A stretch of DNA of 36,909 nucleotides from an uncultured Desulfobacteraceae bacterium. Its GTDB lineage: Bacteria > Desulfobacterota > DSM-4660 > Desulfatiglandales > HGW-15. Location: NCBI GenBank assembly GCA_964449025.1, contig CAYUYB010000001.1, forward strand, positions 1 through 36,909. The letters run 5' to 3'. The notes beneath the pieces were generated by a model. The model did no database searches and had not been told where the DNA came from. It was given only the letters and a program-made list of their open reading frames with translations. How positions within the stretch are numbered: the stretch's first letter is position 1; the number at the start of each line of letters is the position of its first letter. This document shows positions 27,828 to 36,909 of the stretch, piece by piece. Position numbers and translations under genes: made by a program.

Positions 27828-28133
27828 CTATTTTTTTAATTTTTCGATCTCTTCTTCTACCTCTTCTGCTCCTTCTTTATAGTATTCTTCTTCATCCGGC
27901 GCTAATTCTCTTAACAGACGCAAAAACTCACCGGCATGTACTCTCTCTTCGTTGGCGATATCCGTTAACACCTTGATTGCCAACTTGTTGTCAATTGATT
28001 CAGCCAATTGCATGTATAACTGAACCGCCTCATATTCAGCGGCTACCATAAAACGAATCGCGCGAATCAACTCTTCTTGTGTGAGTTTTCTGTCCTTAGC
28101 AAGTCCTGAAAATGGATTACCGAAATCTGGCAT
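27828..28133 (-). CDS. Encapsulated-ferritin-like (EncFtn/Flp family) small ferritin-like protein, stand-alone
   Basis: 101-aa ORF. ELIRAIRFMVAAEYEAVQLYMQLAESIDNKLAIKVLTDIANEERVHAGEFLRLLRELAPDEE closely parallels the ferritin-like domain I recall from encapsulin cargo and fusion proteins, with its E-x-EA-x-x-Y ... EE-x-x-H-x-GEF iron-ligand pattern. An AAGGAGG RBS lies upstream. Confidence 0.8.
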   Translation of the reverse strand: MPDFGNPFSGLAKDRKLTQEELIRAIRFMVAAEYEAVQLYMQLAESIDNKLAIKVLTDIANEERVHAGEFLRLLRELAPDEEEYYKEGAEEVEEEIEKLKK

Positions 28134-28274: not shown

Positions 28275-28286
28275 CGGATATATCCG
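28275..28286. promoter_or_regulatory. Perfect 12-bp palindrome CGGATATATCCG next to an AT-rich tract, in the EncFtn/araC divergent region
   Basis: Read directly from the sequence. It is followed by aataattaataattttattttataacatattatttat (28290-28327), which loosely resembles repeated NATWAT hexamers of Fur-type boxes. Confidence 0.2.
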
Positions 28287-28541: not shown

Positions 28542-29492
28542 GTGGAAACCGTATCCGGAAACAAAAATACTGTTGAAAATAAAGGAATCTGTGCGATGTC
28601 AATAAGACACGAATCCAAAAACCTGCCCGTGCATACTCTTGACAAGGTAGGCAAAGGTGAAACCAATTTTAATATTAGCGAATTCGGTCAGATGTGCGCA
28701 CTATCCCACTCTCCATTTCCGCATCGTCATGCCTTTTATGAGATAATGTATATAGAAGGGGGGAGAGGTACTCATATAATAGATTTTGAACCCTATTCAG
28801 CAACACCTGATTCACTGTTCTATCTTTCGCCAAGCCAGACCCACTTCTGGAGACTAACCTCTCCGGTTCAGGGCCGTACCATAAGATTTACTGAAAATTT
28901 TCTGCTATTCTCTCCCTCTGAACAGCTTCTCCATTCGGATCTAGATGTGTTTCACACCCTATCATACCCCCCCCATATCAAACTGGGCAAAGGCAGGGGA
29001 CAAAAAATAAAAACCTTTTTCAATCAAATAGAGAAAGAATACCGCTCGAATGATCATGGCCGCGAGCTTAGCATAAGAGCCTATCTGGTCATCTTACTCG
29101 TTGAGATAGAGCGTCTTTTTATGGCGGATAATCACAGAAAAAGCATAATGAAAAGCTCAGCACTTATAAACATGTTTAAGAAAATGGTTTCAAACGAACC
29201 CCTACCTAAAAAACCCGTAAGCTATTATGCCAGCAAATTGGGGTTAAGTGAGGCCTACTTACATGAACTCTCCAAAGAGAATACAGGATTGACGCCGGGC
29301 CAGATCATCCGGAAAGAGATAGCACTGGAAGCGAAACGGCAGCTCGCACACACAGACAGCACAGTTGCGGAGATCGCCTACAGACTTCATTTTGATGATC
29401 CCTCATATTTTGGACGGTTTTTCAAGCGCGAAACAGGCCACAGGCCCAAGGCATTCAGGTCCTATATCCGAAAAAAGTACCATATTTTATAG
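28542..29492 (+). CDS. AraC-family transcriptional regulator (cupin-type sensor + HTH_18)
   Basis: The N-terminal AraC-binding/cupin-like region is HRHAFYEIMYIEGGRGTHIIDFEPY. The C-terminal double HTH is SYYASKLGLSEAYLHELSKENTGLTPGQIIRKEIALEAKRQLAHTDSTVAEIAYRLHFDDPSYFGRFFKRETGHRPKAFR. The start is GTG 28542 or ATG 28596. Confidence 0.88.
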   Translation: METVSGNKNTVENKGICAMSIRHESKNLPVHTLDKVGKGETNFNISEFGQMCALSHSPFPHRHAFYEIMYIEGGRGTHIIDFEPYSATPDSLFYLSPSQTHFWRLTSPVQGRTIRFTENFLLFSPSEQLLHSDLDVFHTLSYPPHIKLGKGRGQKIKTFFNQIEKEYRSNDHGRELSIRAYLVILLVEIERLFMADNHRKSIMKSSALINMFKKMVSNEPLPKKPVSYYASKLGLSEAYLHELSKENTGLTPGQIIRKEIALEAKRQLAHTDSTVAEIAYRLHFDDPSYFGRFFKRETGHRPKAFRSYIRKKYHIL

Positions 29493-29566
29493 AATTAGTA
29501 CCTTCACATATATGGGTTCATTTATAATAATGGATTATTTATTTTCCAATAATTACAACAAAAATC

Positions 29567-29592
29567 CCGGGCCGGAAGGCCCGGCTTTGATT
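29567..29592 (+). terminator. Intrinsic terminator after the araC-family gene
   Basis: ccgggcc-ggaa-ggcccgg forms a 7-bp GC stem with a GGAA tetraloop, followed by ctttgattt. Confidence 0.6.
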
Positions 29593-29659
29593 TCACCTGC
29601 GGTGACATCTTTGCGAAAATTTTACTAAACATCAATTGAATAATAGGGGGATAAAATTA

Positions 29660-32176
29660 ATGTCTGAACAGGTATTCACTAACTGTACCAATGAAGGTCC
29701 CATATCGGTGTATGTGAGGGCCGGAAAGGTAGTCAGAATAAGACCTTTGGTTGCAGATGAAACGGATTTCAAGCCATGGACGATAGAAGCCGGAGGAAAA
29801 AGCTACACACCGCCGAAGAAATTTAACTTGGCCCCTTTCATACACGCAGAGAGAAGAAGATTATACTCGGACGACCGAATAAAATATCCCATGAAAAGAA
29901 AAGATTTCGATCCGGAGGGCAAAAGAAATCAGGATAAGAGAGGGATATCAGGATACGAACGCATAACCTGGGATGAGGCCCTCGATATTGTTTCGGGAGA
30001 GATTAAACGAATAAGGCAGCAGTACGGTGGTCCGGCAATAACCGGGATGACTTCCTCCCATCACTGCTGGGGGATAGTTGGCTACAAAATGGGGCCGTTT
30101 TCCCGTTTCATGGACATGCTTGAATATACCCCCGTATTTGATAATCCGGATAGTTGGGAAGGATGGCACTGGGGGGCCACCCATACTTGGGGATTCTACT
30201 GGCGTTTAGGTGTTCCGGAACAATACGATCTTCTTCAGGATGTCCTGAAGAATACCCAAATGATAGTGTTCTGGTCAAATGACCCAGATACGACCAGGGC
30301 CATCTACTCAGGCCAGGATTCCGTTATATGGAGGCAATGGCTCAAGGAAAAAGGTGTAAAAATGGTCTTCCTAGATCCCTATTTCAACTATACAGCGGCC
30401 CATATGGATGCCACATGGTTTCCTCTGCGTCCCGATTCCGGCACTGCCGTGGCACAGGCTATCGCCCACGTATGGCTCATCGAAGACACATATGACAAGG
30501 ATTATGTAGAAACACATACTGTGGGGTTTGAAGAATTTAAGAGACACATACTGGGCAAAGACGACGGGATACCCAAAACCCCTGAATGGGCATCGGTAGA
30601 GTCAGGTATTCCCGCCAGAAAAATAAGGGGTCTGGCCAGGGAATGGGCTTCCAAGCGTACTGTTCTTTCGGCAGGCACCCGAGGCGGAGAAGGCAGCGCC
30701 TGCAGGACGGCGTTCGCAACCGAATGGGCGAGGATGATGGTCCTGCTTCAAGCAATGCAGGGACTCGGTAAACCAGGAGTGGCCATATGGGGAACCACGA
30801 TGGGCGCTCCATCCGACACGAGTATCTATTTCCCCGGGTATGCGGACCCGGATTCAAGAATGGGCATCTCCCGAGCAGCGGACAGGCGGATAATAAATCC
30901 AACCAAACAGCGTCTCTACAGGCTTACATTACCTGAAGCCATACTCAATCCACCTATAGAATGGTACGGGGAAGGATTTTGCGGCCAATCGCTGGATCAG
31001 CAGTTTATCCATTATACCTATCCCATGGATGGATATCCCGAAGTCAAGATGTTTTACCGCTACGGAAGCAGTTTTATAGGCACAATGTTAGATACCAGTA
31101 AATGGGTACGGATGTATCAGAGTCCGAAGCTCGAATTCGTGGTCAATCAGGATGTGTGGTGGGGTGGAGAAACGAGTCTTGCTGATATCATCCTCCCGGC
31201 ATGCACAAACCTTGAACGCGAGGATATCGGAGAATCCTCTGCCGCCGGTGGCTACAGCATACACGGAAGCAACGGCAATAATTTTAGGGTCGTGGTGAGG
31301 CAAAAAAAGTGCATAGAACCCCTCTGGGAATCCAGACCGGATTATGAAATATTCACCCTGCTTTCCGAAAAACTCGGCATGAAGGATCTATACACTGAAG
31401 GCAAAACCGATCTTGACTGGGCTAAAAGGTATTTCGAGATATCCGACCTACCTAAATACATCAGCTGGGAAGAATTCGACAAAAAAGGATATTTTATCAT
31501 TAATCCCGGTGAGCACTATAAACCTACCCCGGCCCTGCGCTGGTTTTATGAAGGACGTCATTGCGACACCCCTGATCCCTTGAATCCCAAAAGGAATACT
31601 GAAAAAGGGAATGAACTCGGCACCTATAGCGGCAAGATAGAGTTTGTGTCCCAGAGTCTTTTAAAGAACTTTCCGGACGATGATGAACGCCCGCCGGTGC
31701 CGCACTTTATACCAAGCTGGGAAGGCTACAGGAGCGATCTATATAAAAGATATCCCCTGCAGATGGTAAGTCCTCACCCCAGATTTTCATTTCATACCCA
31801 TTATGACAAGCATACCACATGGCTAAATGAAATACCTACACATCGAATTATTAAAGACGGTTATGCCTGGTGGCCAGCCCGTGTCCATCCGGAGGACGCC
31901 GCGAAGAGAGGTATTAAAAACGGAGACATTATCAAGCTTTACAATGACCGGGGTGCGGTCTTGTGTATCGCCGTTATAACCGAGAGGGTGATGCCCGGAA
32001 TTGTTCACAGTTATGTCTCTTCGGCAAATTACGATCCGCTTGAACCGGGGAATCCGAATTCAATCGATCGGGGAGGATGCGTGAACATCCTGACCTCGTC
32101 AAGGATGATGTCAAAACACGCCCCCGGTATGACGCCTAATTCATGTCTTATAGAGATAGTTAAGTGGGAGGTTTAA
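29660..32176 (+). CDS. athL: Pyrogallol-phloroglucinol transhydroxylase-like molybdopterin oxidoreductase, large (alpha) subunit (DMSO reductase superfamily)
   Basis: I chose ATG 29660 (MSEQVFTNCTNEGPISVYVRAGKVVRIRPL, RBS aggggg at 29643-29648). Long stretches match my recollection of Pelobacter acidigallici transhydroxylase alpha: IKYPMKRKDFDP, YERITWDEALDIV, TSSHHCWG, DNPDSWEGWHWGATHTWGFYWRLGVPEQYDLL, IVFWSNDPDTT, TPEWASVESGIPARKIRGLAREWA, MQGLGKPG. There is no twin-arginine signal and no N-terminal Cys cluster. Confidence 0.85.
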   Translation: MSEQVFTNCTNEGPISVYVRAGKVVRIRPLVADETDFKPWTIEAGGKSYTPPKKFNLAPFIHAERRRLYSDDRIKYPMKRKDFDPEGKRNQDKRGISGYERITWDEALDIVSGEIKRIRQQYGGPAITGMTSSHHCWGIVGYKMGPFSRFMDMLEYTPVFDNPDSWEGWHWGATHTWGFYWRLGVPEQYDLLQDVLKNTQMIVFWSNDPDTTRAIYSGQDSVIWRQWLKEKGVKMVFLDPYFNYTAAHMDATWFPLRPDSGTAVAQAIAHVWLIEDTYDKDYVETHTVGFEEFKRHILGKDDGIPKTPEWASVESGIPARKIRGLAREWASKRTVLSAGTRGGEGSACRTAFATEWARMMVLLQAMQGLGKPGVAIWGTTMGAPSDTSIYFPGYADPDSRMGISRAADRRIINPTKQRLYRLTLPEAILNPPIEWYGEGFCGQSLDQQFIHYTYPMDGYPEVKMFYRYGSSFIGTMLDTSKWVRMYQSPKLEFVVNQDVWWGGETSLADIILPACTNLEREDIGESSAAGGYSIHGSNGNNFRVVVRQKKCIEPLWESRPDYEIFTLLSEKLGMKDLYTEGKTDLDWAKRYFEISDLPKYISWEEFDKKGYFIINPGEHYKPTPALRWFYEGRHCDTPDPLNPKRNTEKGNELGTYSGKIEFVSQSLLKNFPDDDERPPVPHFIPSWEGYRSDLYKRYPLQMVSPHPRFSFHTHYDKHTTWLNEIPTHRIIKDGYAWWPARVHPEDAAKRGIKNGDIIKLYNDRGAVLCIAVITERVMPGIVHSYVSSANYDPLEPGNPNSIDRGGCVNILTSSRMMSKHAPGMTPNSCLIEIVKWEV

Positions 32177-32178
32177 AA

Positions 32179-33018
32179 ATGTCCAGATACGGTATGGTTA
32201 TAGATATCGATAAATGCAATGGCTGCTATAATTGTTTCCTGGCATGTAAGGATGAATTCGAAGGTAATGATTACGTACCGTATTCGATTTCCAATGCCAT
32301 TGAAGGCAAATCATGGATGCGTATACTTGAAAAGGAAAGGGGATCCACACCCAAGGTAAAAGTTGATTATATCCCTATCCCTTGTCTCCAATGTGAGGAT
32401 GCGCCATGTGTAAGGAGTTCTTCAAACGGTGCGGTTTATCGACGGCCTGACGGCATTGTAATAATAGACCCTGAAAAAGCAAAGGGTGACAGGAGCATCG
32501 TTTCAAGTTGTCCCCACCGGCTCATCTACTGGAACGAGGAAAAAAACGTCCCCCAGAAGTGTACATTCTGTGCACATTTATTGGACAAAGGCTGGAAAGA
32601 GCCCCGTTGCGTTGAGGCGTGCCCAACCGGGGCCCTGATATTCGGTGATCTTGACGATCCCAAATCCAAGATCTCCAAGCTTAAGGCATCCTCCGAGACA
32701 GAAGAACTCAACCCGGAATTCGGATTGAAGCCAAATGTCACCTATATCGGACTGCCCAGGAGATTCATTGCCGGCGAAATAGTCCTGGGTGATAAGAATG
32801 ATGAATGCGCACCACGTATTAAGGTTTCCTTAATTGACGGCGCCAGAATGATGGAATGCGAAACAGACAGTTTCGGCGATTTTGAGTTTGAGGGGCTGGA
32901 CCAGGGGAGGGAATATACCATAAGGGTTCATCATCCGGGATATATCGCCAAGGAAATCCCCGTTGTCACCTATACCGATGTAAATATGGGAGTCATTGAG
33001 CTCGAGCTGGAAAGATAA
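32179..33018 (+). CDS. bthL: Transhydroxylase-like small (beta) subunit: 4Fe-4S ferredoxin-type with a C-terminal beta-sandwich domain
   Basis: ATG 32179 follows RBS gggagg and overlaps the end of the alpha gene. The motifs are MVIDIDKCNGCYNCFLACKDE, PCLQCEDAPCV, GAVYRRPDGIVIIDPEKAKG, YWNEEKNVPQKCTFCAHLLD and RCVEACPTGA. The C-terminal ~80 aa (GDFEFEGLDQGREYTIRVHHPGY) look like a carboxypeptidase-regulatory-like fold. Confidence 0.85.
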   Translation: MSRYGMVIDIDKCNGCYNCFLACKDEFEGNDYVPYSISNAIEGKSWMRILEKERGSTPKVKVDYIPIPCLQCEDAPCVRSSSNGAVYRRPDGIVIIDPEKAKGDRSIVSSCPHRLIYWNEEKNVPQKCTFCAHLLDKGWKEPRCVEACPTGALIFGDLDDPKSKISKLKASSETEELNPEFGLKPNVTYIGLPRRFIAGEIVLGDKNDECAPRIKVSLIDGARMMECETDSFGDFEFEGLDQGREYTIRVHHPGYIAKEIPVVTYTDVNMGVIELELER

Positions 33019-33133
33019 TTGACGATAAGGATATATCTCCCCGGATTATCCCCCCGACCAAAGAGGGGAATGAAATGAGCCAAAAAGATATGACCTCATC
33101 CCTTGCTTAAGGATTTTAGGCAAGCGCAACCTG

Positions 33134-33162
33134 TTGACAGGGAGCTCCATGAGGTTTATCTT
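33134..33162 (+). promoter_or_regulatory. Candidate sigma70-type promoter for the downstream phloroglucinol-module genes
   Basis: TTGACA (33134-33139), a 17-nt spacer, then TATCTT (33157-33162). It lies in the 350-bp gap between the beta subunit and the BKACE gene. Sequence match only. Confidence 0.3.
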
Positions 33163-33305
33163 TAGAATCATGGGGTTTCATCAAACAGGGTCTTGAGATT
33201 AAAGAGATGGACCTTAATCTCCTTATGACTCATGAAATGGAGGAGTGCCATTGATGCAATAGGCGTCCTGGGAAATCATGAGGTTAAAAGGGTGGAGACA
33301 GCCAA

Positions 33306-33321
33306 ATTGGCTAAAGCCAAT
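33306..33321. promoter_or_regulatory. Palindrome ATTGGCT-aa-AGCCAAT, about 50 bp upstream of the BKACE gene (candidate operator)
   Basis: A 7+2+7 inverted repeat read directly from the sequence. It overlaps a second small palindrome, gccaaattggc (33301-33311). Confidence 0.3.
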
Positions 33322-33369
33322 CTGTAAAATCTATCAGAATTTTTAATAACACAGGAGGTCATTATCTAA

Positions 33370-34209
33370 ATGAGAAAAGTTATAATAACGGTTTCATTAA
33401 CCGGTGGAGTTCAGACAAAAGCCCAGAATCCCAATATACCGGAGCAACCCGATGAGATTGCCGAGGACGCGTATAATTGTTATAACGAAGGGGCAGCCAT
33501 AGCTCATATCCATGCGCGTGATAAAGAGGGTAAACCCACCGGCGATGTGGACATATTCAAGGAGATACATGAGGCAATTCGCGCAAAATGCAATATGATC
33601 CTCCAGGACAGCACAGGCGGAGGTCCGGGGCTTAACTTTGAACAAAGACTCGCGTGCCTTGATGCCGCCCCTGAAATGGCCTCCTTGAACATGGGTTCCA
33701 TGCTTAGAACCATAGGAAAGACCGCCGGCACCACATGGGCCAATCCGCGGCATGAATTGGAAAGATTCGCAGAGGAAATGGCAAAAAGGAGCATCAAGCC
33801 TGAGATGGAGATTTACCATCACGGCATGCTCCGGGAAATGAAGAATTTCATTGATAAAGGACTTATTCAAAAGCCTTACTATGTGAATCTGGTAATGGGC
33901 ATGGCTTATCAGGGTGCAGTGGACGCCACTGCGGAAAACCTGGTCACCCTTACCAACCTGTTACCCCCTGACACCATCTTTAATTGCTGTGCCATCGGCA
34001 GAGCACAGCTACCCATCACGACCCTTTCCGTGCTCCTGGGCGGGAACGCCAGGGTGGGCATGGAAGATAATATATATTATGCAAAGGGAGTACTTGCAGA
34101 GAGCAACGCCCAGCTTGTGGAGAGAAGCGTCCGTATCATAAAGGAAATCGGTTACGAGATTGCTTCGCCACAGGAAGCACGTGATATCATCGGGCTAAAA
34201 AGTGTCTGA
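33370..34209 (+). CDS. BKACE family (beta-keto acid cleavage enzyme, DUF849; 3-keto-5-aminohexanoate-cleavage-enzyme-like); predicted triacetate (3,5-dioxohexanoate) acetoacetate-lyase
   Basis: 279-aa ORF. The family-typical N-terminus is KVIITVSLTGGVQTKAQNPNIPEQPDEIAEDAYNCYNEGAAIAHIHARD. Later motifs are ILQDSTGGG, ...EMEIYHHGM and GGNARVGMEDNIYY. An AGGAGG RBS is present. The specific substrate is inferred from context only. Confidence 0.82.
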   Translation: MRKVIITVSLTGGVQTKAQNPNIPEQPDEIAEDAYNCYNEGAAIAHIHARDKEGKPTGDVDIFKEIHEAIRAKCNMILQDSTGGGPGLNFEQRLACLDAAPEMASLNMGSMLRTIGKTAGTTWANPRHELERFAEEMAKRSIKPEMEIYHHGMLREMKNFIDKGLIQKPYYVNLVMGMAYQGAVDATAENLVTLTNLLPPDTIFNCCAIGRAQLPITTLSVLLGGNARVGMEDNIYYAKGVLAESNAQLVERSVRIIKEIGYEIASPQEARDIIGLKSV

Positions 34210-34297
34210 TTCTTATATAATATGTAAAGGATATAACAGAATTTAGTTTTGAACAAATTAAAAACACAATTAAATATAAACCGGAAGGAGAAATATT

Positions 34298-35185
34298 ATG
34301 GCCTATATGCCTCTTGACAAAAGCAAGCTCTATCTTGACAGAAACAAGATGACAAAGATTCATGACCTTAGCCAGCCCTGGGGCGTGGACACGCCTCTGT
34401 GGCCTTTTCCCGGCCCCCGACAGGATCTTATTTTCCCACGCGGACAGTATCTGGGCCGTTTTCACAAGCGTACCATGACCTATACCGGTACGCTCCACGC
34501 CGGCACTCACATAGATGCCCCTAACCACGTCCTGCATGAAGAAGAGGTTGATCGTGAACGTAACGGGTATTCTCTCAACGAGATCCCTCTTGAATACTGT
34601 ATCGGCTCCGGCGTGATTCTGGATATGCGCCATCTGAGGGATGATTTCGAGAAGAACTTCGGAGACGGCTTCAACGGCGATCTGTGGAAGATACTGATGC
34701 CAGAGGATGTCGAAAAGGCCTGCCAGAAGGACGACCTTGAGATCCGTGAGAACGACTGGGTAATCGTCAATACAGGCTGGCACCACTATTGGAGAAAAAA
34801 CAACGATAAGTACTATAACTACTATGCTGGAATGGGCCCTGAGCTCGCAAAGTGGCTTACCTACGAAAAACACATCAAGGGTATCGGCGGTACATGGGGT
34901 GCGACTGACGCTCCTCTGTGGCATTACCCTCTCAAAGAGCAGATGCCCTGGCTAGATAATGCGTATCGAAAAGCCACCGGCAAGGACCCGGATGTTGAGT
35001 TCCCGGATTATGAGCCCTGTCACCGTATCTACATGCAGGCCGGCGTTGTTACTGTCGAGAATGCCGGCGGCGACATAGACGATGTTACCGGCAGGCGTAT
35101 GACCATCGCTGCCTTTCCGTTCCGTTGTGAGATGGCGGACGGCGGATTTGTGCGACTTGTCGCCTGGGAAGAGGGGTCATTCTAA
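34298..35185 (+). CDS. Cyclase-family metal hydrolase (kynurenine-formamidase-like, PF04199-type); predicted dihydrophloroglucinol cyclohydrolase
   Basis: 295-aa ORF with the cyclase-family motif HAGTHIDAPNHV (HxGTHxDxPxH) and a later ...NTGWHHYW... region. RBS ggaaggag. The specific function is inferred from gene context. Confidence 0.8.
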   Translation: MAYMPLDKSKLYLDRNKMTKIHDLSQPWGVDTPLWPFPGPRQDLIFPRGQYLGRFHKRTMTYTGTLHAGTHIDAPNHVLHEEEVDRERNGYSLNEIPLEYCIGSGVILDMRHLRDDFEKNFGDGFNGDLWKILMPEDVEKACQKDDLEIRENDWVIVNTGWHHYWRKNNDKYYNYYAGMGPELAKWLTYEKHIKGIGGTWGATDAPLWHYPLKEQMPWLDNAYRKATGKDPDVEFPDYEPCHRIYMQAGVVTVENAGGDIDDVTGRRMTIAAFPFRCEMADGGFVRLVAWEEGSF

Positions 35186-35345
35186 ACCGGCTTTTCCTTT
35201 CATTTCGAGATCCTGGACAGCGGGGTAGCTTGCCGTGCCTCGAGCAATGAGCCGTGGTGCAGGCCCACAAAATTCCGCTGCCCAGTAAATCAACAGATTA
35301 TTCAAATAGTTTAACTATTATATAATCATATTTTCGGAGGTCGCT

Positions 35346-36104
35346 ATGTTCAGACTTGACAATAAGATTGCTGTTGTCATAGGCGGAGCGGGAGGAATCG
35401 GTGAGGCCTGCTGCACCGCTTTGGCGCAACAGGGGGCAAAGGTAGTGGTTGCCGATATGAATCTGGAAAAAGCGAGCGAGGTAGCTAAAAGAATAAATAC
35501 AGACACGGATTCCGAAGCGGTTGCAATGCCGCTTGATGTTGGAAAAGAGGAAAGCATTGCAAATCTAGCAGATGATGTAGTGAAGAAATACGGCACAATC
35601 GATATCCTGGTTAACTCACAGGGTATCAACGCCAAGATGCCAGCAGTCGATATTGACGTTAACAAATGGGATTCTCTGTTTAATGTTAATGTTAGAGGGG
35701 TGATCTTGCCTTGCAAGATTATTGGTAAGATAATGGTAGAAAAGAAACAGGGCAAAATAATCAATCTCTCTTCAGTCCGTGGCATACGCGGTACAGACGG
35801 AGGTAACGTGACTTATGGCGCGACAAAGGGTTCGGTTGACATGATTACGCGCATGCTTGCCGCGGAATGGGCTCCATACAATATCAACGTTAACGCGATC
35901 GGCCCTTCCGTTGTAATGACTGAGGCGATCAAGAAGGCTGTCGCGCCGGAACGTTTGGAGATGCTGCTTTCTAAGACCCTTTTTAAGAGATTTGTCACAC
36001 CCGAAGATGTAGCGGCTGCGTGTGTCTATCTTGCATCCAATGAGGCGGACAACATAACCGGTCATATCCTCTACGTTGACGGGGGACTCACCGCGATAGG
36101 TTAG
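35346..36104 (+). CDS. Short-chain dehydrogenase/reductase (classical SDR); predicted phloroglucinol reductase
   Basis: The cofactor motif is VIGGAGGIGEA. The catalytic Ser is in NLSSVRG and the YxxxK motif is YGATK. The C-terminus is PEDVAAACVYLASNEADNITGHILYVDGG. The specific substrate is inferred from context. Confidence 0.85.
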   Translation: MFRLDNKIAVVIGGAGGIGEACCTALAQQGAKVVVADMNLEKASEVAKRINTDTDSEAVAMPLDVGKEESIANLADDVVKKYGTIDILVNSQGINAKMPAVDIDVNKWDSLFNVNVRGVILPCKIIGKIMVEKKQGKIINLSSVRGIRGTDGGNVTYGATKGSVDMITRMLAAEWAPYNINVNAIGPSVVMTEAIKKAVAPERLEMLLSKTLFKRFVTPEDVAAACVYLASNEADNITGHILYVDGGLTAIG

Positions 36105-36307
36105 TGTTAAATATCCGACTGCTTGAGCGCCTTTCGGCCCTGAGCTACGCGACATGGAGATGATTCCTTCGACGGTGCTTAGAACCATGACCTTCCTAAT
36201 GTCTCGTCGATATATCTCAAGTCCGATGGGCAACCGCTAAAAGCTTCATTCCGGGATCTTCGCTTTATGGCTGTAAAGCAAGCAAAGAATCCTATTCGAG
36301 GATTGTC

Positions 36308-36909
36308 ATGAAAAGTAAAGATATAAAAAAGATATTCATAGTGGGCGCGGGAACAATGGGCCACGGCATAGCCCAGGTATTTGCCACTGAAGGATATAAT
36401 GTTTCCCTTTTTTCACGCACCCGTCAGACCCTGGACAGAGCTATATCCCTTCTGGAAACCAGCCTGGCTACTCTTACCCAGGAAGGTCTCGTCGATAAAG
36501 AGCATATCCCGGGAATAATGGGGCGGATCAATATGACGCAGTCCCTTGAGGAGGGATCAGCCGATGCTGATATCGCCTTTGAAACGGTTGTGGAAAACAG
36601 GGAAGCAAAGGCAGACATATTCAGTAAGCTGGACCAACTATGTCCTGAAAGGACTCTCCTTGCCAGCAATACAACCGCACTCAATATCTTTGATTTCGTG
36701 AAGACCTCCAGACCTGACAAGGTCCTTATAGGCCATTGGTATACACCTCCCCAATTAATACCTCTGGTGGATATTGTTAAGGGGCCGGAGACAAGCGATG
36801 AGTCTGTTATGTTAATGGCAGAATTGATCAAACAGGTGGGGAAAACCCCGCTTATTATGAAAAAATTCAGCTCAGGCTATGTGGTTTCACGTATCCAGAT
36901 CGCTACTCT
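36308..36909 (+). CDS. 3-hydroxyacyl-CoA dehydrogenase family protein (N-terminal ~200 aa; runs off the window); possibly 3-hydroxy-5-oxohexanoate dehydrogenase
   Basis: Absent from the ORF track because it has no stop in the window. My translation from ATG 36308 gives MKSKDIKKIFIVGAGTMGHGIAQVFATEGYNVSLFSR...AFETVVENREAKADIFSKLDQLCPERTLLASNTTALNIFDF...IGHWYTPPQLIPLVDIVKGPETSDE. This is the Rossmann GxGxxG motif plus HAD-family core motifs. Confidence 0.82.
   Translation, partial: MKSKDIKKIFIVGAGTMGHGIAQVFATEGYNVSLFSRTRQTLDRAISLLETSLATLTQEGLVDKEHIPGIMGRINMTQSLEEGSADADIAFETVVENREAKADIFSKLDQLCPERTLLASNTTALNIFDFVKTSRPDKVLIGHWYTPPQLIPLVDIVKGPETSDESVMLMAELIKQVGKTPLIMKKFSSGYVVSRIQIAT

Follow-up and report, generated by a model that had tools for sequence, protein, structure and literature searches.

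In guts, peat and sediments, the anaerobic mineralisation of flavonoids and tannins is funnelled through phloroglucinol. In Clostridium scatologenes, this compound is converted to acetoacetate and acetoacetyl-CoA by four enzymes: the phloroglucinol reductase PGR (EC 1.3.1.57), a short-chain dehydrogenase/reductase (SDR); the dihydrophloroglucinol cyclohydrolase DPGC, of the cyclase family; the dehydrogenase TfD, of the 3-hydroxyacyl-CoA-dehydrogenase (HAD) family; and the lyase TAL, a beta-keto acid cleavage enzyme (BKACE). This pathway has been reconstituted (Zhou 2023, PMC10470551). The pyrogallol-phloroglucinol transhydroxylase AthL/BthL of Pelobacter acidigallici (EC 1.97.1.2), a molybdenum (Mo) enzyme, has a solved structure (PDB 4V4C). 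Here we analysed a stretch of 36,909 nucleotides from an uncultured Desulfobacteraceae bacterium (contig CAYUYB010000001.1, GenBank assembly GCA_964449025.1), hereafter the window. Its last 8 kb hold a gene island in which a Mo enzyme related to AthL/BthL stands beside the same four ring-cleavage families. With a probability of about 0.6, the island represents one instance of a conserved, uncharacterised cluster, termed W-type, that would degrade a trihydroxybenzene by phloroglucinol-type chemistry.

Ring-cleavage genes and their conservation

The island occupies positions 28542-36909 of the forward strand. Both the listing of open reading frames (ORFs) and the Pfam searches agree on seven co-oriented genes, the last of which runs off the window: an AraC-type regulator, the alpha and beta subunits of the Mo enzyme, a BKACE, a cyclase-family protein, an SDR and a HAD-family protein (Table 1). 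These are the genes and families that a first-pass annotation had proposed, and its account of which families make up the C. scatologenes cluster was right as well (PMC10470551). Exactly the same four ring-cleavage families make up the reconstituted pathway, which favours a phloroglucinol-type route.

In the proposed route, all reactions and substrates are predictions drawn from the gene families, the catalytic residues that are kept, the conservation of the cluster and the placement in clades. The cytoplasmic Mo enzyme, a member of the clade TH1 described below, would relocate a ring hydroxyl on pyrogallol or another polyhydroxybenzene, producing a 1,3,5-oxygenated ring, the keto tautomer of which would be reduced by the SDR. 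The cyclase-family metal hydrolase would open the cyclic 1,3-dione through retro-Claisen hydrolysis, yielding a 3-hydroxy-5-oxo acid. This free acid would be oxidised by the HAD-family protein, probably with NADP+, and the BKACE would use acetyl-CoA to cleave the beta-keto acid into acetoacetate and acetoacetyl-CoA. The AraC-type regulator, which appears to be transcribed separately, probably controls the genes.

A search with the cyclase retrieved 260 genome loci, and to describe the conservation of the cluster we counted neighbours within 10 kb of the cyclase gene in the 80 that matched best. A HAD gene lies near the W-type cyclase in 60 of the 80 loci, an SDR gene in 43, a BKACE gene in 38 and a transhydroxylase-like alpha gene in 22. 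All four ring-cleavage genes are present in 26/80 loci; in 14/80 the transhydroxylase-like gene accompanies them, so that the joining of a Mo enzyme to ring-cleavage genes, first remarked on in the window, is not unique to it. The carriers of the W-type cluster belong to Desulfobacterota, Sporobacter, Oscillospiraceae, Sporomusa, Synergistales and Spirochaetia. Firmicute versions add a CtfA/CtfB-type CoA-transferase, a thiolase, an SSF transporter, a MerR regulator, MobB and a small cupin. A CtfAB-type CoA-transferase and a thiolase are what acetoacetate and acetoacetyl-CoA require, which supports the pathway. Versions of the Desulfatiglans type consist of cupin, SDR, cyclase and an ADP-forming acyl-CoA synthetase, and in one further locus (L010) a TH1 gene is linked to an AMP-forming synthetase, a cupin, an SDR and a cyclase. 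The pairing of SDR and cyclase with an acyl-CoA synthetase implies that the product of the cyclase is a carboxylic acid. SDR and cyclase are, as far as gene content tells, the constant core of the cluster, and the downstream branch varies.

The sequences of the C. scatologenes cyclohydrolase (CsDPGC) and dehydrogenase (CsTfD) were taken from machine-read supplement text with reading errors, and the percentages given for them are therefore approximate. The window cyclase is 28% identical to CsDPGC (94 bits); its best PDB match is isatin hydrolase, with 29.6 bits. By these scores, CsDPGC is the closest characterised relative of the W-type cyclase. His67, His71, Asp73, His242 and Glu254, which form a His/His/Asp/His/Glu metal site, are invariant in the W-type clade and align with the ligands of CsDPGC. 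In addition to the metal ligands, W-type cyclases and CsDPGC share the Trp of a WP[YF] motif, an EPCH motif and a VENxGGD motif, all of which isatin hydrolase lacks. Of the two pocket residues of CsDPGC, Trp20 is conserved as Trp35 in the window protein, and Tyr22 corresponds to Phe37. The W-type clade is tight, with 70-96% identity across Desulfobacterota, Clostridia, Negativicutes, Synergistales and Spirochaetia. Clustering at 50% identity sets it apart as one cluster of its own in a library of 1.8 billion representatives, in which the Cs-type representative matches at 78 bits. BKACE and SDR genes also flank the cyclases of an intermediate clade, which shows 45% identity to the window protein. 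Existing annotations of W-type cyclases and their partners say no more than 'cyclase family protein' or 'kynurenine formamidase'.

Among NCBIfam models, the BKACE scores best with Kce of lysine fermentation (NF052387), reaching 302 bits against a cut-off of 382. His46, His48, Glu143, Arg226, Glu230 and Asp231, equivalent to the zinc ligands and catalytic residues of Kce, are kept in the window protein and invariant in related loci. Glu14 of Kce binds the 5-amino group of the substrate, and CsTAL, the C. scatologenes lyase, has Trp16 at this place (Zhou 2023, PMC10470551). The corresponding residue is Val in the window, and in all 47 covering BKACEs of related loci (47/47) it is Gly, Ala, Val, Ile, Leu or, once, Arg. 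Replacement of the amine-binding Glu by Val fits an uncharged 5-oxo substituent.

The two dehydrogenases of the island appear to use different cofactors. In the SDR, the cofactor motif VVVADMNL (residues 33-40) carries an NADH-type Asp at the end of strand beta-2; relatives with 62-75% identity have ASRNL, an NADPH-type Ser-Arg, and SSRKE also occurs in relatives. No specific NCBIfam or PDB relative was found for the SDR. Its 60 best PDB matches, scoring 114-156 bits, are of sorbitol, gluconate and FabG types, with no PGR-named entry among them. The HAD-family protein is 33.5% identical to CsTfD over 194 amino acids (aa), as against 43-55% to the more divergent HAD homologues of W-type loci. 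Lys56 of 3-hydroxybutyryl-CoA dehydrogenase (HBD) is Leu in the window protein, and Asn221 is Ala in a 94% identical, full-length orthologue of 320 aa (locus L002), which covers the region outside the window. These two CoA contacts are thus predicted to be lost, as in CsTfD. The acidic residue of the Rossmann fold, Asp31, is replaced by Ser-Arg, from which NADP is predicted as the cofactor. An NADPH-forming dehydrogenase has been reported for P. acidigallici (Brune and Schink 1992), and the NADP-type Ser-Arg of the HAD-family protein would fit that enzyme.

The molybdenum enzyme and its clades

The best solved relative of the alpha subunit is AthL (PDB 4v4c_A, 896 bits), followed by trimethylamine N-oxide reductase at 295 bits; that of the beta subunit is BthL (PDB 4v4c_B), with 223 bits over residues 1-274, the full length. 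By BLASTP, the identities are 49% to AthL and 43% to BthL. The alpha subunit has the AhtL-like N-terminal domain (PF21423) together with PF00384 and PF01568. The beta subunit contains three Fe-S cluster motifs, whose Cys motifs align with those of BthL, and a C-terminal beta-barrel domain. The comparison with AthL/BthL made in the first-pass annotation is therefore sound in that these are by far the best solved relatives, but the alpha subunit belongs to a sister clade with two fixed changes.

An AthL query was rebuilt from the PDB alignment and used on a large protein collection, in which at least 120 proteins are 61-96% identical to AthL. With its 49%, the window alpha subunit lies outside the AthL clade proper. 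A midpoint-rooted neighbour-joining tree of 49 sequences resolved three clades: AthL; its sister TH1, with the window protein in subclade TH1a; and the distant TH2. TH1 also takes in the copies beside W-type cyclases of Sporobacter, Papillibacter and Desulfobacterota.

The active site of AthL reportedly includes the Mo ligand Ser175 and the pocket residues His144, Asp174, Tyr404 and Tyr560 (Messerschmidt 2004). In AthL numbering, TH1 conserves His144, Tyr152, Asp174, Ser175, Trp176, Tyr404, Phe468 and Tyr560. Arg153 and Trp354 are kept in nearly all AthL-clade sequences sampled and are Lys and Glu in the window; the changes fixed in TH1 are R153K together with W354E in TH1a and W354F in TH1b. 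In TH2, Tyr152, Arg153, Trp354 and Tyr404 are lost, the last becoming Ile, Val or Met, and residue 560 is Phe. Because of these losses, the reaction or substrate of TH2 is probably different.

The clades also stand in different gene contexts. Among six AthL-clade contexts, four have a flavodoxin-like gene, three have UbiD, LpdB or LpdD gallate-decarboxylase genes and one has a phloretin hydrolase nearby; ring-cleavage genes adjoin none of the six. A 96% identical AthL homologue adjoins gallate-decarboxylase-type genes and has no ring-cleavage gene within 10 kb. TH1 genes adjoin the set of cyclase, SDR, HAD and BKACE, and TH1 and TH2 pairs occur together in many loci. In one genome (OW818648.1), an AthL-clade enzyme (L110) coexists with a TH1b enzyme that has a W-type cluster (L035).

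Two side observations were made in these loci. AthL-clade loci often carry an extra AhtL-like Mo-enzyme gene a few kb away (L113:21114-22661, L114:8081-10684 and L115:17045-18253); two of these genes are about 1000 aa long, and their presence implies that paralogue expansion is general in the family. A small cupin of about 110-120 aa adjoins athL in a Pelobacter-like genome (L107:9098-9442). It recurs at 52-58% in several W-type loci (L043:2812-3174, L010:12263-12586) and is more distant in the cupin-SDR-cyclase arrangement of Desulfatiglans; the window island has none.

Layout, closest relatives and signs of remodelling in the island

Identical gene order, at 84-96% amino-acid identity, was found in a Desulfobacteraceae metagenome-assembled genome (L002) and in three Joint Genome Institute (JGI) metagenome contigs, so that the arrangement is not an accident of assembly. 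By exact look-up, an identical SDR protein is present on the 1.3-kb JGI contig Ga0307421_1062736, and the best metagenome-scan match of the HAD fragment is 94% identical. Only 200 of the about 320 residues of the HAD-family protein are inside the window, and the sequence beyond position 36909 was inferred from the relatives L002, L082 and L084. All three have the order AraC, TH1 alpha/beta, BKACE, cyclase, SDR, HAD, TH2 alpha/beta and a 102-aa ORF, which in L002 is followed by CoaE, SelA and a SIS protein. The first-pass annotation had expected a gallate decarboxylase, transporter, CoA-transferase or thiolase to follow; downstream of the island in the closest relatives there is no decarboxylase, transporter, CoA-transferase or thiolase, and the TH2 pair and the genes just named are found instead. 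In L002 (12973-16690), 3' of the HAD gene, the TH2 subunits share 39% (alpha) and 47% (beta) identity with those of the window, and the 102-aa ORF has no Pfam match.

The gap of 351 bp between the beta and BKACE genes is not an empty spacer; it contains the decayed remains of an acyl-CoA synthetase gene. When the intact 728-aa L027 gene is used as tblastn query, the relic in the window matches at 31% over 71 aa (E 0.002), and at the matching place in L002, L082 and L084 it matches at 50-52% across a frameshift (E 1e-12). Comparison of the window with L002 shows this stretch to be conserved. An intact synthetase gene is present in L003 and lies downstream of the cyclase in Desulfatiglans loci, which suggests that, in the lineage of the window, the BKACE branch took the place of a CoA-ligase branch. 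L003 and L004 carry cyclase and SDR proteins 81-89% identical to those of the window, and in L003 only, the alpha subunit is shared at this level as well. In the equivalent slot, however, they have a BKACE of another subfamily (L003:2885-3748, L004:8323-9186), 32% identical to the window BKACE and with GAGTK or GAATK in place of its GGVQT. This difference amounts to a paralogue displacement inside one cluster. Synthetase relic and BKACE swap both read as signs of recent remodelling.

Table 1. Coordinates of the features of the island in the window
Feature	Positions	Strand	Description
AraC-family transcription regulator	28542..29492	+	316 aa from first start codon, true start uncertain; Pfam HTH_18, HTH_AraC, AraC_binding
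GC-rich hairpin CCGGGCC-GGAA-GGCCCGG	29567..29584	.	Consensus scan; 7 pairs, all G-C; T-rich tracts on both sides
Mo-enzyme alpha subunit, pyrogallol-transhydroxylase-like, bis-molybdopterin guanine dinucleotide (bis-MGD) type, clade TH1a	29660..32176	+	838 aa; Pfam AhtL-like_1st, Molybdopterin, Molydop_binding
Fe-S beta subunit	32179..33018	+	279 aa from ATG; Pfam Fer4_11 and a weak, sub-threshold CarboxypepD_reg
Acyl-CoA synthetase relic (ADP-forming, ATP-grasp_5 type)	33027..33236	+	C-terminal ~70 codons; tblastn
BKACE-family beta-keto acid cleavage enzyme	33370..34209	+	279 aa; Pfam BKACE 324 bits; predicted triacetate-type acetyl-CoA-dependent lyase
Cyclase-family (PF04199) metal hydrolase, W-type	34298..35185	+	295 aa; Pfam Cyclase 106 bits; predicted ring-opening cyclohydrolase
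Classical SDR	35346..36104	+	252 aa; Pfam adh_short_C2 218 bits; predicted ring reductase
HAD-family (3-hydroxyacyl-CoA-dehydrogenase-family) protein	36308..36909	+	Runs past window end; Pfam 3HCDH_N 169 bits; predicted NADP-dependent 3-hydroxy-acid dehydrogenase

The start of the alpha gene is most likely ATG 29660, which has the putative ribosome-binding site AGGGGGA and gives the 838 aa also found in L002, rather than TTG 29636. For the beta gene, the most likely start is ATG 32179, two bases past the alpha stop and preceded by GGGAGG as ribosome-binding site; the first start of this ORF is GTG 32164. The hairpin in the gap between araC and the alpha gene is terminator-like on both strands and could terminate transcription in both directions, and such a two-way terminator would make araC a separate transcription unit. 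The regulator itself does not reach any NCBIfam equivalog cut-off, the best model being HpaA with 111 bits against 275; its counterparts at the same position are 84% identical in L002 and 59% in L004.

Outside the island, the window contains housekeeping genes (GroEL, DnaJ, RNase III, Era, PurD and CysQ-like). The upstream edge of the island is sharp, formed by a gene of the CysQ/inositol-monophosphatase family and a small rubrerythrin-like gene, and the same pair borders the island in L002, marking the upstream boundary. The rubrerythrin-like ORF, directly upstream of the island, encodes 101 aa on the reverse strand (27828-28133) and has a weak Pfam match. Rfam scans, a permissive one included, gave no match. 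The palindrome GATATATC was considered as an operator. It has four copies in the 36.9-kb window against about one expected, at 28277, 32939, 33030 and 36209, all within the island and three of the four in intergenic regions or close to them. The sites are not kept at the corresponding positions of L002 and chance is possible, and the palindrome was dropped as evidence.

Weighing of the readings and comparison with known systems

A number of observations weigh against the phloroglucinol-type reading. By identity (28-49%), no component of the island is a close orthologue of a characterised enzyme. The one-to-one match to characterised enzymes claimed in the first-pass annotation stands at the family level and falls at the level of orthologues, as seen in the cyclase (28%), the HAD-family protein (33.5%), the SDR motif and the BKACE cut-offs. 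The BKACE scores 229 bits with the NCBIfam model for 3,5-dioxohexanoate:acetyl-CoA transferase (NF053538), whose cut-off is 430, and has Val in place of the Trp of CsTAL. PGRs carry a TR(S/N) motif that binds the 2'-phosphate of NADPH (Zhou 2023, PMC10470551); the window SDR lacks this motif, has Ala-Asp-Met at that position and is equally near to dozens of characterised SDRs, none of them favoured. Among the 524 DPGC entries of Zhou et al. (Data set S3), none is 295, 300 or 301 aa long, which places the W-type cyclase outside that set on the evidence of length. The alpha subunit falls into the sister clade TH1 and not the AthL clade, it shares the fixed changes at residues 153 and 354, and the presence of both kinds of enzyme in genome OW818648.1 argues that the two are not redundant. 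Phloretin hydrolase, UbiD and LpdD were looked for in W-type loci and not found, and no phloroglucinol-producing gene, such as one for phloretin hydrolase or gallate decarboxylase, came to light in any of these loci. Judged by sequence, the island genes are an uncharacterised lineage parallel to the studied enzymes.

How literally the phloroglucinol-type reading should be taken is a question of its own. In its narrow case, the island would encode an isofunctional pyrogallol-phloroglucinol transhydroxylase together with PGR, DPGC, TfD and TAL. This case shares the evidence base of the broader reading, and all checked active-site residues of the alpha subunit but two are conserved. Sporobacter termitidis, which according to its species description reportedly cleaves the ring of methoxylated trihydroxy-aromatics, carries a W-type cluster (L019). 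The Cs-type DPGCs in Data set S3 of Zhou et al. include no Sporobacter entry. However, the AthL clade is separate (at least 61% identity within it) and has its own context of gallate decarboxylase and flavodoxin-like genes, one genome keeps a TH1 and an AthL-clade enzyme side by side, the cofactor motif of the SDR is unlike that of PGRs, and all five catabolic genes diverge together from the characterised set, which suggests shifted specificity. We regard the narrow case as a tentative possibility against which we would lean. The same enzyme logic could also serve another aromatic input: TH1, with TH2 in the relatives, would act on hydroxyhydroquinone or another tri- or tetrahydroxybenzene, or a substituted analogue of phloroglucinol would be ring-cleaved. 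The fixed TH1 changes (R153K, W354E or W354F), the strongly remodelled TH2 pocket (Tyr404 to Ile, Val or Met, Tyr560 to Phe), the co-occurrence of TH1 and TH2 pairs in many loci and the coexistence with an AthL-clade enzyme all speak for such an input, but HAD, BKACE, CtfAB and thiolase best fit a triacetate-type intermediate and the window itself has TH1 only, which makes it unlikely in our view. For Pelobacter massiliensis, Brune et al. (1992) reportedly described how hydroxyhydroquinone is converted to phloroglucinol by transhydroxylation in several steps, and to our knowledge no genes have been assigned to this conversion. It is conceivable, though again doubtful, that the W-type cluster is a distinct route in which TH1 and TH2 transhydroxylate non-pyrogallol substrates, for example hydroxyhydroquinone to phloroglucinol, and feed parallel ring-cleavage enzymes with an NADH-type reductase and an NADP-type dehydrogenase.

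Two further readings change the chemistry itself. RhL, of resorcinol hydroxylase, belongs to the same family as the transhydroxylase, and the Mo enzyme might accordingly be a resorcinol-hydroxylase-like or other RhL/PgtL-family enzyme, one that hydroxylates or dehydroxylates by redox chemistry, and not a transhydroxylase. Yet the known resorcinol route is oxidative and the neighbours in the island are reductive ring-cleavage genes; that route continues through hydroxyhydroquinone dehydrogenase, which the island lacks; and Tyr404, His144 and Asp174 are kept. This reading is quite improbable. Far less probable still is a beta-keto acid pathway of the lysine or carnitine type with an S- or N-oxide reductase as Mo enzyme, although the best NCBIfam models are Kce (302 bits) for the BKACE and bisC and dmsA types for the alpha subunit. 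These NCBIfam scores are all far under the curated cut-offs, the match to AthL outscores every S- or N-oxide reductase threefold, and the island has no other protein-family match. With Val at the position of Kce Glu14, the lysine-type alternative for the BKACE, raised at the outset, is excluded, and the lysine- or carnitine-type reading was rejected on the cut-offs and this replacement. Of the readings, the enzyme logic put forward in the first-pass annotation has the best support.

Genome surveys of phloroglucinol capacity lean on AthL, PGR and DPGC reference sequences. If the W-type cluster carries out the same or a related pathway, such surveys would miss gut Oscillospiraceae, termite-gut Sporobacter and sulfate-reducing Desulfobacterota. 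The TH1 and TH2 clades are candidates for transhydroxylase reactions still without genes, and the cluster occurs in two cultured strains, Sporobacter termitidis DSM 10068 and Sporomusa silvacetica DSM 10669, in which the hypothesis can be tested directly.

Compared with the C. scatologenes cluster, the window has the same four protein families clustered, and other W-type carriers share the CtfAB, thiolase, transporter and regulator genes. The cyclase metal ligands, the loss of the CoA contacts in the HAD-family protein and the loss of the amine-binding Glu in the BKACE are common to both. Different from C. scatologenes, the window cyclase and HAD-family protein are only 28% and 33% identical to their counterparts, Tyr22 is replaced by Phe, Val takes the place of Trp16 of CsTAL, and the SDR has no NADPH motif. 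The HAD-family protein is NADP-type by its motif, whereas CsTfD prefers NADH, and the locus in the window includes a Mo enzyme. Collinsella is said to use an aldolase branch, described by Li et al. in 2024; no aldolase was seen in the window island.

With AthL/BthL, the Mo enzyme of the window shares the full-length alpha/beta architecture, the AhtL-like N-terminal domain, a Ser-ligated Mo site, most pocket residues, and the Fe-S clusters and C-terminal beta-barrel of the beta subunit; neither enzyme has a twin-arginine translocation (Tat) signal. It differs in its identity (49%/43%), its clade (TH1, with R153K and W354E) and its neighbours, which are ring-cleavage genes rather than the UbiD, LpdB, LpdD and flavodoxin-like genes of the AthL clade. 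Resorcinol hydroxylase RhL/RhS of Azoarcus (Aromatoleum) anaerobius is assigned, like the transhydroxylase, to the RhL/PgtL branch of Ser-ligated enzymes of the dimethyl sulfoxide (DMSO)-reductase family, but it works in an oxidative, nitrate-dependent pathway with other neighbour genes. Kce resembles the window BKACE in its TIM-barrel family, zinc ligands and catalytic Glu, Arg and Asp, and gives the best-scoring NCBIfam model; it is set apart by Glu14, which is Val in the window, by the score under the cut-off and by the lack of lysine-fermentation genes nearby. As for the CoA-dependent branch of P. acidigallici, as described by Brune and Schink (1992), related loci likewise pair SDR and cyclase with acyl-CoA synthetases and not with HAD and BKACE. 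The window retains a relic of such a synthetase, but now stands, by its gene content, on the HAD/BKACE branch.

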